This document shows, piece by piece, positions 15,682 to 44,504 of a stretch of DNA of 44,965 nt (the first letter of the stretch is position 1; each line of letters begins with the position of its first letter). The position numbers and the translations under genes were made by a program. Source of the DNA: Folioceros fuciformis (taxonomy: Eukaryota); assembly GCA_049999805.1 (NCBI GenBank), contig JBNGIO010006186.1:52401-97365 (forward strand). The letters are read 5' to 3'. Under the pieces are notes generated by a model. The model was not told the DNA's origin. It searched no databases and saw nothing but the letters and a program-made list of their open reading frames with translations.

Positions 15682-16267
15682 GATTACCTCTTTGTTCTAT
15701 GAGAGGTTTTTGGGAGTATTGTAGAAGGATATGGCTCTAAACCTCAAATAACTTTTGTGTAGCAGAATAAGAACATGAAACAGTACCTCACCAAAAAATT
15801 ATATTTTGGGTCAAGATAGAACTTGGCATATATATTATACAACCTATGCATATATAGATCTTAGGTTTCTCTTGTTTCTCGGAAAAGGGAAGATTCATTA
15901 AATATTCATAAATATAATTAATGATATTAACTTAACTTAATAAGTTTGTGGAGGATGGGTCATGTGAACCGTATGTGAATGGTATATTAGGGTTAATGAC
16001 ATGGAAAACCTTACAACAACCATAGCCCGTTACTAAAAGCTCTATATCATGATTCTCCTTCTTTTCTATATTGTGGCCTTTCGATCCAACACGTATCTAT
16101 TCATTTTTTTCAAAGAGCATGTGGCCAAAGCGATTTTTAGAACAACAAGCTGCACATATCAAGTGGCAAGCATGCCTCATTAGATCAAGTGGCAAGCATG
16201 CCTTTTGCTATTCCATGTCATGACATTTTTTGAGAATGATGTTCCAAAGGACCTAATTGTGGACTCC

Positions 16268-16617
16268 TCCTTGTTCTCCAATCTTTGGCCCTGCTCCTTG
16301 ATCCCCAATCTTTGACCCTGCTCCTTGATCCCCAATCTTTGGCCCTGCTCCTTGTTCCCCAATCTNNNNNNNNNNNNNNNNNNNNNNNNNNNNNNNNNNN
16401 NNNNNNNNNNNNNNNNNNNNNNNNNNNNNNNNNNNNNNNNNNNNNNNNNNNNNNNNNNNNNNNNNTCCCCAATCTTTGGCCCTGCTCCTTGTTCCCCAAT
16501 CTTTGGCCCTGCTCCTTGTTCCCCAATCTTTGGCCCTGCTCCTTGTTCCCCAATCTTTGGCCCTGCTCCTTGTTCCCCAATCTTTGGCCCTGTTCCTTGT
16601 TCTCCAATCTTTGGCCA
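16268..16617. repeat. 27-bp minisatellite spanning a 100-N gap
   Basis: The unit ccaatctttggccctgctccttgttcc repeats on both sides of the N run 16366-16465. Confidence 0.95.
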
Positions 16618-40778: not shown

Positions 40779-43700
40779 TTAAGCACATGACCAGCTGATG
40801 TCGAGATTCTCGCCCATTGACAAGTGAAGCCCAGATATGTCTGCTCGCAAGCGGGAGGGATCATGGGACACTCGGACCTGCGAGGATGGGGCAGCATTGT
40901 TGATCAAGACATTCCCGGGCAAGGTTGCCACTCCCAAGAGTACCACATTGTGCAGGTCCAACTGCTGGTCAGTAGCATAGGTCCCGGTGGCTCCTACTCT
41001 GGCTTGCAGGCACCCTTGAGTTGGAGATAAGGAGGCAGTGTAGGCAACCATGGTGGACTTCCCTGGGGTGAGCTTCATCTGTGTCTCGCTGTCGTCGTCG
41101 AGGAACAGTTGGCCTCTGGCAGTTTGAGTCTCTGATGTTGGTGCTTCCAATGAGAAGGCGATGAGCAGCGAAAAAGGAGTCTTGCGGCAAAGGGTGGTAG
41201 TCAGCCTGCTTTCTTGCATGGGGACAATGGCGCCCTCGTGGACATGGACGTTCACGACTTGTAGAGCAGCTGACAGTGTCTTGTAGGCGCCTTCGGAGCC
41301 AGTGACATGTGAGGAATCGAACAGATTGTACCACGTACCCCTTGGAAAGTAGGCGTTTACAGATGAGGCCCCTGCTTCCAGCACCGGTGAAACCAAAATA
41401 CAGGATCCCAGCAAAAACTGCTTAGAGATGGTCAGAGACTCTGAATCTTCAGCGAACTCAAAGAAGAGAGGCCTGGCAATAGGATGGCCATGGACGTGAG
41501 CTCCGTAAGCCAAAGTGTAGAGGAAAGGCAGCATGCGGTACCGAAGACCGAGGGCAGTCCGAGCAGACGCGGCCACCGTTTTCCAGAGGTAGAGTTCCTG
41601 GTGACTGCTGTCGATATGCGAATGGTTTCTAGCGAAGGGATAGAAAGCACCCACCTGAATCCACCGATTCATCAGCTCCTCCCCAGCATCCCCCAGAAAC
41701 CCACCAATGTCTGCACCCACCATCGGAATGCCGAACAGCCCCGATCCCAGGATTCCTACCACAGAGTAAGCCAGGTCGTCGAAGGAAGATGCGTTGTCAC
41801 CTGTCCAGTGGGCGGCATACTTCCCAGACCCGACAAAAGTGGATCGAGAAAGGATGAAGGGGCGCTTGCCTAGAACTGTCCGGAGGGCCTTCTCAGTCAC
41901 GATGGCCTCACACAGACCATACAGGTTATGAGCGTCGTACTCTAAAACTCCATTGAAGTGCCGGGCACTGGTGGCAATAGTGTACATTCCCAGATTTCTC
42001 CTGGTGCCTCCGTCATTGATGCTGTATGGAGGATTGTCCCAGCGTGACGGGTTCTCAGAAGCGCAACTCAAGCAAGGTGTGGTTGGAGAGCTCTTGTCAG
42101 GGCAAACCCGGTTCACAGGATACGTACACGTCAGGCCGGTGGAAAAGTTGGATGCCTCGTTCATATCAATCCACAAACCATCGAAGGGCACTTGGTCATG
42201 GAAGTCTGCAACTTCTCTCGTCCAATACGAGGCTGTGTTGGGATCCAGAAAGTCTGGAAAGTTGACAGGTCCCGGCCAAACTTGTCCAAGGTAGTTGTCA
42301 CCATTGACGTCCTTGATATAAATGTCAGCCTGAAGACCCCTGTCATAAGATGGGTAGTTGTCCACAGCATGGATGCCTGCACAAAATTGATTGTGGAAGG
42401 TGAGAGTTTAACTTTCAGACGAAGTCCTGACAGTGACAACTTCCTGATTTCGCATTCACGAGTTTCGTGTTCGCAGTTTGGCAGTTTTGGGTGAGGGAAG
42501 CTTACCAGGGTCTACGATCATGACGTACTTCTTCCCGTCTGCATGCAGCTCATCAGCAAATTTCCGAAGCCTATCCGCTGGATAATTGACAGGGTCGAGT
42601 GTGAAGTCTCTACTGCTGTCCATGTAGTCAATGTCCGACCACATCACTTCGAGAGGAATATTTGATTCCTTGTACCCAGAGACCACGCTCTCCAATTCAT
42701 CCACGTTTTTGTAGCCCCATCTACACTGATGGTAACCTACACACTCGAGGATTTGTGGCTTCACAAAACAGGAGAACATGCGGAGCACACCACGCTGATG
42801 CGAACATAAAGGAAAGGAACAGCGCCTAGAACACACGACCGGTGCCTGCAAACAGGGGAGGCGAAGCTTTACCAAAAGACCAGTAAGGCATGGGCGCAGG
42901 CCTTCCTACGAGTTGGGTGTACTGTGACACCACAGACAAGGGCGAGCCACCCCCAAAAAAATAGAAATCCAGTACACCTCCAACAACTCGGTAGGTCAGA
43001 CCGTGGGATGAGTAGGAGACATCCATGCCATTACTGTTGAGGAGAAGCACACCATGAGTTGTACCACCTCGTCTTACATCCATGTAGAAGGGAAAGGCAC
43101 CGTACAAGTTCACATCAGTGGACAGGCTGGGAATATCTGCGGCCCATAGTGTGTAAGTCTCTCCTTGCGTTAGCCGCAAACCTTTGGACCGTGTGCTCTC
43201 ACCCAACCCATACAAGGATGCATCCTGAGGAATCTCAGTTGATATCTCCAAATACTGATCCTTGAACACCAAGCTCGCAGGACCATGATGACCCCTGGCT
43301 GTGTTGAAGAGGACCTCACCAGTGCTTTTCCTACTCACTGTGAAGCTGAAAGGATCCAAGATGTACGAGAAATCCAAGCTACGAGAAGAGAAGTTGTCTT
43401 CTCCTGACTCCCCCTCACCACCACTCCGGGGTATGAGATCTTCCGGAATTTCCCATCGTTCCTTACTACTATCGGTGATCTTCACATGGACCCTGTCAGG
43501 AGTTTCGTACCTGAGCAAAGAGCTGGTGTTAGACCAGCAACTTCCCGTCACACACACGATAAAATGCTTGAACCGACAGGTCTGGAGCCGACACGCAGAT
43601 GGACAGACCTCACGGTCAGCAGCAGGTCCGTTAAATCCTGTCCATACGCCTGGGTACCTCGGATGAGCTTCAAGTTTGCAACAATGCAACTTCCATCTCC

Positions 43701-44118
43701 AGCTTCCGAAACAGACGTGACCCGATAGCCATAACCCACTACATAATTTGCAGGGGCACGAACCAAGTGCAATAGAAGAAAATCAGGAACATCTGACGAT
43801 GAAGACGGAAGCAAAGGAAAAAATGTGGACACGCTTCCTACCATTCGCGTCGATAGGAGGCTCAAATTGCGGCGTTACTGCCTCTGCCTCCGAACTCCCG
43901 TTGCCTGGAAGAGAGAGCGTGAGCGCCGAGCTGCCAGCCAAGAGCTGTCTCCTGCTCACAGTGAACGCAATGGGTCCTTGACCGTCTTGATCCACAGAAT
44001 CACTTGCCCCGCAAACCGAGGCTGTACGTGGTATGGAAGAAGCCTGCACTACCAGGCTCCGAGAAGCGGCAGGTACGGGCCTGCTGGGGCAACAGGCGCA
44101 GGAGGCTCTGAACGCCAT
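40779..44118 (-). CDS. Glycoside hydrolase family 31 alpha-glucosidase/alpha-xylosidase; exons 44118(or 44136)-43842, 43738-43609, 43510-42873, 42736-42506, 42376-40779
   Basis: [59 protein letters not shown] and WSDIDYMD. Catalytic DGLWIDMNE and HWTGDN, then GIPMVGADI and [14 protein letters not shown] introns keep the frame. Confidence 0.95.
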
Positions 44119-44504
44119 GGCTGGCCGCTGCAGCATTCCTTTCCCCGGGGCCTGTGGGAGCAGGCAACAGCCAGCCAGCCAACTAGCGAGGAGGGCGAGG
44201 TGCGCTGGGGAACTTTTTGTTTGCACGAACCCAGGTGGATCACAATTCGGAGGCTCTGCTCATTCCTGACACAAATTTGATGGCCACTTGATGAAATGGA
44301 CGCACTTGCAGATACGATGAAGATGGAAAGGAGCCCAGCGCGCCCTTTCTCTTCGACTGCTGCGCTTGAGGTGGGCGCTGGCCTAACGGAACTGTTAGAC
44401 GGAGCGACCTTGGTTGGAATTCAAAGAAGCAGGATGCAGGCGGTGGTGGTGAAAGGCAGACCGTTGCGGGACATCAAAGGAGGAATTGATGCATTGGGCT
44501 GGCG

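Follow-up and report, generated by a model that had tools for sequence, protein, structure and literature searches.

A spliced and expressed hornwort GH31 gene with a bipartite plastid-type presequence, probably captured from HCF136

Structure, transcripts and neighbourhood of the locus

The window analysed here is a 44,965-nt stretch of the hornwort Folioceros fuciformis (GenBank assembly GCA_049999805.1, contig JBNGIO010006186.1, positions 52,401 to 97,365 of the forward strand). On its minus strand lies a GH31 alpha-glucosidase gene of five exons joined by GT-AG introns, which together form a 957-aa open reading frame with a single terminal stop. Exon 1 (43842..44118; 92 codons plus 1 nt) starts at ATG 44118, with a further in-frame ATG at 44136, and encodes a bipartite presequence that was probably captured from another gene. 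The phase-1 intron 1 (43739..43841; 103 nt, ATG|GTA donor) represents the putative fusion junction and links exon 1, with the frame kept, to the VGYGY start of the GH31 N-terminal domain in exon 2 (43609..43738). Exon 3 (42873..43510) continues this domain (PF13802), exon 4 (42506..42736) opens the TIM barrel, and exon 5 (40779..42376) encodes the catalytic barrel and C-terminal domains (PF01055 and PF21365) and aligns with 3W37. All three Pfam domains (N-terminal, TIM-barrel and C-terminal) scored above their cut-offs. The original prediction had described an Ala/Ser/Arg-rich, acid-free start, an acidic spacer and an RR...AxA stretch, spliced in frame to an intact GH31 enzyme, and this is the arrangement seen from ATG 44118.

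The runs X1 and X2 were treated as RNA on the basis of their GT-AG joints; neither is recorded as RNA. Run X1 contains 0.89 of the window's words and shows all four intron joints of the gene. Exon 1 is covered by an X1 contig (43853-44288) that is spliced to exon 2 and extends 170 nt upstream of ATG 44118. The 43842/43738 junction expected in transcripts was recovered from an X1 contig that omits 43739-43841 (CT..AC ends) at a depth of 7.1, next to depths of 4 and 5 for introns 2 and 3, contig depths being unsuited to ranking isoforms. The joint of exon 2 occurs in both X1 and X2, and those of exon 4 were found in transcript contigs. The chimeric hornwort GH31 gene is real, spliced and expressed. 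A whole protein requires exon 1, as downstream of it Met does not recur before residue 279.

In the relative X2, introns 2-4 are jointed; intron 1 is retained in a contig, with no spliced joint listed. This contig reaches into the neighbouring gene and may thus represent DNA or pre-mRNA. The X2 indels within exon 1 (3 and 27 nt) are in frame, and one of 4 nt lies upstream of both ATGs. The 27-nt insertion, read by hand and located in the transit-peptide-like segment, adds neither a stop nor an acidic residue.

Run X1 also has contigs across intron 1, and an intron-retaining isoform may exist. A short or intron-retaining transcript, read from ATG 43844 through intron 1 into VGYGY, would yield a cytosolic or weakly secreted enzyme, and the loss of disulfides described below would fit the cytosol equally well. 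The frame permits such a product: read in the exon-2 frame from the ATG at the donor site (43739-43844, minus strand), intron 1 contains no stop, 35 codons separate this ATG from VGYGY, a distance also seen in the P0003 homologue of Nothoceros, and the retained intron of the X2 contig carries a net 6-nt deletion that preserves the exon-2 frame. However, one stop-free frame is found in each of the gene's four introns, so that intron 1 is not special, and the resulting signal peptide would be poor (12-residue hydrophobicity 1.6, as low in only 4 of 81 homologue N-termini). Furthermore, intron 1 bears no DNA likeness to the signal region of the paralogue (P 0.99), its ATG|GT is accounted for by the HCF136 donor described below, and X1 splices the intron, with a contig that begins well before ATG 44118. 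We consider a non-plastid product improbable. The stop-free frames in 4 of 4 introns, the absent DNA likeness and the ATG|GT shared with the HCF136 donor also led us to reject, as unsupported, the idea that intron 1 is a former signal-peptide coding region.

A C2-domain gene (PF00168; 44490-44963, plus strand) and the GH31 gene are arranged head to head. Because the X1 contigs of the two genes end at 44288 and start at 44351, respectively, both probably share a very short bidirectional promoter. On the other side, an SLC35F transporter gene (PF06027; 38346-40463, minus strand) starts about 300 nt past the GH31 stop, and one X1 contig runs from the 3' part of GH31 into spliced SLC35F sequence, so the two transcripts abut or overlap. 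Further away in the window, an AT-rich non-coding element (16053-16247) is about 74% like a stretch downstream of the GH31 paralogue L048 and adjoins a short repeat unit that extends into an assembly gap (16366-16465); it is probably a dispersed repeat and no sign of synteny. The window contained no match to any Rfam family.

The GH31 passenger and its relatives

Both catalytic motifs, WIDMNE (494-499) and HWTGDN (615-620), could be aligned to 3W37 and 9KZ6. From the roles of the homologous GAA residues D518/D616 (PMC5653652), the nucleophile is assigned to D496 (42167-42165, minus strand) and the acid/base to D619 (41798-41796, minus strand). The closest named homologue, P0003 of Nothoceros aenigmaticus, is 62% identical in exon 5. 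We built a midpoint-rooted tree from the catalytic half (from residue 440; 35 of 88 aligned rows), in which the gene is sister to P0001 (100/100; 75% identical) and joins L048, P0002 and P0003 in a five-member hornwort clade (100/99), ungrouped with the alpha-xylosidase 1 row P0067. As had been proposed, this placement indicates that the gene descends from the secretory AGLU/XYL-type plant GH31 clade. P0001 spans the last exon only, and exon 1 of this orthologue is unreadable there.

With the secretory clade, as represented by sugar beet alpha-glucosidase 3W37, the Nothoceros protein P0003 and the paralogue L048, the enzyme shares its three domains and both catalytic motifs, and introns 2-4 lie at identical places in the gene and in the close paralogues L048 and L049. 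Unlike this clade, it has no ER signal peptide; an additional exon gives it a bipartite presequence of 92 residues, and four otherwise invariant cysteines have been lost. In L048 and L049, a signal-peptide-like hydrophobic stretch is encoded by the same exon as VGxGY. Because both paralogues are without intron 1, and the RR pattern occurs in the first 120 residues of none of 117 full-length GH31 homologues, the N-terminal extension is, by these comparisons, new in this lineage. In the first 40 residues, 12-residue hydrophobicity reaches 0.88 against a median of 2.67 in 81 homologues, which indicates that the ER signal peptide was lost from this GH31. Both the gain of a new first exon and the loss of the signal peptide had been anticipated by the original prediction.

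Among 120 matches listed above 930 aa, none exceeded 52% identity, and the best identity in a metagenome scan for an orthologue was 61%, neither blank being proof of absence. L049 (G000:C4459), the third paralogue of the secretory type, contains a long insertion within its N-terminal domain, and its gene model includes one GC-AG intron of uncertain border.

Two pairs of cysteines have been replaced in the passenger. Pair 1 (42075..42143, minus strand) has become S504 (42143-42141) and P526 (42077-42075), with Ala and Gly at these positions in P0001, and pair 2 (41670..41705, minus strand) has become G650 (41705-41703) and M661 (41672-41670), with the same G/M in P0001. Each of the 85 full-length homologues compared, of which 83 came from databases and two are the paralogues, has Cys at all four positions. 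The change is old, because it is common to the gene and P0001, which are sisters at 100/100 and 75% identical. At 650/661, C/C was found in 217 of the 218 motif matches obtained from 240 fetched proteins, the exception being P0001 (27 proteins were unmatched by the pattern); in the metagenome, 71 of 77 loci matched and all 71 were C/C.

This paired loss suggests that two presumed disulfides were given up, as expected off the ER folding route; a literature search found no support for disulfide pairing of the lost cysteines. The change in the passenger fits a departure from the ER route, yet it marks no single compartment, because pair 2 is likewise missing from L149, which has a signal-peptide-like start and which we take to be glucosidase-II-like, and from L148 and L150, which are presumably HGL1-like. 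Four other cysteines in the same region (509, 517, 527 and 530, ending in C-x-x-C; residues 509-530, 42063-42128, minus strand) are kept, in P0001 as well, next to two neighbours that are lost in both; they could form two retained disulfides or a metal site. The four N-glycosylation sequons compare with a mean of 7.2 and are uninformative, as the hornwort paralogues have 4-5. Of five conserved sequon columns, none is occupied here and one is occupied in P0003 and in each of both paralogues.

The presequence and the likely donor of exon 1

The presequence opens with a transit-peptide-like segment, residues 1-38 (44005..44118, minus strand; approximate end point), which comprises 8 Ala, 7 Ser, 4 Arg and no Asp or Glu and gives way to an acidic spacer. 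Its composition is compatible with the stroma-targeting peptide of cpTat substrates. The putative twin-arginine lumen signal S55-A80 (43879..43956, minus strand) consists of S-R-R-Q-L-L, a 12-residue hydrophobic core, a polar stretch and A-E-A. S55-R-R-Q-L-L has the S/T-R-R-x-hydrophobic form of cpTat substrates. A78-E-A80 has the form of a thylakoid peptidase site, and four HCF136 proteins have their A-R/K-A site at the same place in the alignment. RR and AxA are 20 residues apart, as in the HCF136 protein P0252. The linker V81-N92 (43843..43878, minus strand) contains a PID motif and is a probable remnant of the mature HCF136 start.

The bipartite signal is thus present as predicted, and so is the weak hydrophobic core against which the original prediction had cautioned. 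Measured over 15 residues, the hydrophobicity of exon 1 is the lowest of 16 presequences (0.91 vs 1.34-2.09), because the core is followed by six residues that are without exception polar or helix-breaking; over 12 residues it is the third lowest of 21, its value of 1.59 lying between those of two FKBP presequences of the genome (1.52 and 1.73). The Pfam TAT_signal profile matched residues 54-67 only below its cut-off (13.3 vs 22.7 bits).

HCF136 is usually single-copy. When the genome was searched with exon 1, the sole additional match was HCF136a's first exon (L002; E 0.064, 53% over residues 27-80), a gene identified by PF14870 in its next exon, and a degenerate pattern built from this pair matched at these two places only. 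The genome has another HCF136/YCF48 paralogue at L038:1345-3252 (G000:C6232), which has diverged strongly but retains an intact RR presequence; where its exon 1 could be matched, it is 51% identical to HCF136a. Outside the genome, a protein search of 1.84 billion representatives with exon 1 returned 11 matches, all of them multi-stretch proteins at 31-39% identity, a blank that is not proof of absence, and an ESM Atlas look-up returned clusters without names and one PsaN cluster (0.86), which serves as a lead only.

Between T53 and A80, 19 of 28 residues are identical in exon 1 and HCF136a of the same genome. As controls, we used 15 RR presequences of this genome chosen by pattern (15-17 across tests), including PsbP-domain, PsbQ, FKBP, MPH2 and polyphenol oxidase presequences, two of HCF136 and one unidentified; 103 unrelated Tat-signal pairs of the same genome served as the null. 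Exon 1 and HCF136a scored 71 at the protein level (null mean 30.2, sd 9.3, max 59) and 52 at the DNA level (null mean 22.3, sd 4.6, max 36), the latter about 6 sd above the null, which overstates significance as the HCF136a pair had been picked as the genome's best match. The true paralogue pair HCF136a/HCF136b scored 52 (protein) and 53 (DNA). Identical codons encode 10 of the 19 shared residues, compared with 5.0-5.5 expected (P 0.012-0.023), or 9 of 19 with an alternative gap placement. Furthermore, exon 1 ends in a phase-1 ATG|GTA donor in the GH31 gene and in both HCF136 genes (CATG|GTA in HCF136), and P[IV]D, placed 20-50 residues after RR, is shared by the GH31 gene and the two HCF136 paralogues but by none of 15 other presequences. 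This motif belongs to the mature HCF136 start and follows the A-x-A site in GH31 exon 1.

The likeness is confined to this part of the gene. No DNA similarity to HCF136a was detectable in the transit-peptide part (shuffle P 0.30) or in the upstream DNA (P 0.67), a blastn search of the genome with exon 1 and its upstream DNA returned only the self match, and the window holds no further HCF136 remnant. Among the genes neighbouring the GH31 gene, none was found to be common to the HCF136 or paralogue loci.

Alternatively, the presequence could have arisen independently or from another Tat gene, with convergence on the Tat motif accounting for the HCF136 likeness. The genome-wide E-value of merely 0.064 is in keeping with this, as is the failure of an HCF136 presequence profile built without HCF136a to separate exon 1 from the polyphenol oxidase signal (17.7 vs 16.9 bits; 14.7 vs 16.2), and the controls comprise just 15-17 pattern-picked presequences of one genome. 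Convergence does not account well, however, for a DNA score equal to that of a true paralogue pair, for the excess of identical codons, for a donor site common in phase and letters, or for a PID that, among the presequences compared, is confined to the HCF136 genes and exon 1. By these measures the likeness of exon 1 to HCF136 exceeds a generic Tat motif, and we regard convergence as unlikely. A capture event is likely on these comparisons, and with the same assurance we name HCF136 as the probable donor. The donor gene that the original prediction had proposed to look for among lumen proteins is most likely HCF136, and not PsbP or PsbQ.

Destination of the product and related systems

Our preferred reading, which we hold to be likely on the whole, is a re-routed chimera of a GH31 duplicate and an HCF136 first exon that gives rise to a plastid-imported alpha-glucosidase. 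A duplicate of a secreted GH31 alpha-glucosidase would have lost its ER signal peptide, and a shortened copy of the HCF136/YCF48 first exon would have been joined to it via a new phase-1 intron. The transit peptide would carry the precursor into the chloroplast, a step that appears likely. The chloroplast product would be an unglycosylated retaining alpha-glucosidase without the two Cys pairs typical of the secreted form. Judging by the family, maltose or short alpha-glucans are its most likely substrates, and their conversion to glucose its most likely reaction. Given plastid import, a location in the stroma or at the stromal face of the thylakoid, the site of starch breakdown products, has a slightly better than even chance, and full cpTat transfer to the lumen a chance slightly below even.

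HCF136 itself is a Tat substrate with a bipartite presequence that is imported into the lumen (PMC4823308 and PMC3813922). With its first exon captured, the GH31 enzyme could be a true cpTat passenger, a 96-kDa hydrolase that crosses into the thylakoid lumen. Folding would then take place in the reducing stroma, a possible reason why two Cys pairs were lost, and the enzyme would work in the lumen once light has acidified it. We see this as a tentative possibility. Likeness to HCF136a persists in RR, in the initial half of the core and in A-x-A and is no longer detectable in the flanking transit peptide, as expected if selection maintains the signal. The RR-to-AxA spacing equals that of P0252, the 12-residue hydrophobicity is within the range of the genome's FKBP signals, and Tat cargo reaches up to 150 kDa (PMC6708511). 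The four kept cysteines of the same loop would also suit the lumen, for which a thiol oxidase is described (PMC3813922). On the other hand, the 15-residue hydrophobicity is the lowest among the presequences compared, the mature mass is 96 kDa, and words starting with 'glucos' or 'hydrolase' are absent from the main text of one lumen review. We know of no lumenal alpha-glucan or other lumen substrate for such an enzyme.

Alternatively, the transit peptide alone may work, with the Tat part decaying or serving as a tether to the stromal thylakoid face, so that the enzyme would act as a stromal maltase and convert maltose to glucose inside the plastid. This is plausible, although we stop short of giving it an even chance. 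The short core and polar C-region fit such a function, and maltose is one of the main products of chloroplast starch breakdown (PMC4747157). The identical codons that remain suggest a capture perhaps recent enough for a functionless signal to survive. Against this, RR-x-L-L and A-x-A are intact next to an unalignable transit peptide, and the split from P0001 is old, with 25% divergence in the catalytic half.

Full-text searches, in which subscription papers were little covered, found no plastid- or lumen-targeted GH31 of this type and none in hornworts. If lumenal, the re-routed enzyme would add carbohydrate chemistry to a compartment described for photosystem assembly, proteolysis and redox control, provide a natural 96-kDa test of the cpTat cargo limit, and point to an alpha-glycoside substrate, so far unrecognised, that lies within the lumen or faces it and is cut upon light acidification. 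If stromal, it would be a dedicated hornwort plastid maltase recruited from the secretory pathway and would alter the way in which hornworts degrade their starch. Either location would provide a traceable ER-to-plastid re-routing with a likely donor exon and a matching Cys loss in the passenger. As hornworts are transformable, the location is directly testable.

A pyrenoid role of this GH31, suggested in the original prediction, is not supported. According to 10.1101/2024.06.26.600872, hornworts alone among the land plants possess LCIB, and an LCIB family match is present in this genome, which, together with the Nothoceros homologue, identifies the host as a hornwort. In Anthoceros agrestis, RbcS-STAR, a C-terminally extended RbcS, condenses Rubisco (PMC13655443). 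The LCIB-bearing genome analysed here has at least five RbcS genes (L052-L056), and a C-terminal extension was absent from the last exon of all 5 loci read, of 6 found, with the best candidates scored; the host may be without a pyrenoid.

With HCF136/YCF48, a PSII assembly factor (L002, L038), the GH31 exon 1 has in common the RR signal, the A-x-A spacing bar one gap, PID and the phase-1 ATG|GTA donor. Unlike HCF136, it has a polar end to the hydrophobic region, and its passenger is a 96-kDa hydrolase instead of a 37-kDa assembly factor (size from PMC4823308). Transit-peptide capture by exon shuffling is already known. In Populus, rpl32 acquired its transit peptide from a duplicated Cu-Zn SOD1 gene by exon shuffling (PMC8018952). 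Both cases gain plastid targeting via exons of an existing plastid-targeted gene. In the Populus case, however, a plastid gene moved to the nucleus and its product returned to the old compartment, whereas here a secretory enzyme would gain a new one, and the captured signal includes a thylakoid part.

The presumably HGL1-type, non-secretory GH31 proteins L148 and L150 resemble the passenger in the absence of Cys pair 2, and no signal-peptide-like start was seen in L150. They belong to a distant subfamily, however, and with only 29-33% identity an HGL1-type gene was rejected as the source. Unlike the intron-bearing GH31 genes, L148 and L150 (G000:C934 and C6304) are uninterrupted frames of 709 and 825 codons, respectively, and are possibly retrocopies or of foreign origin.
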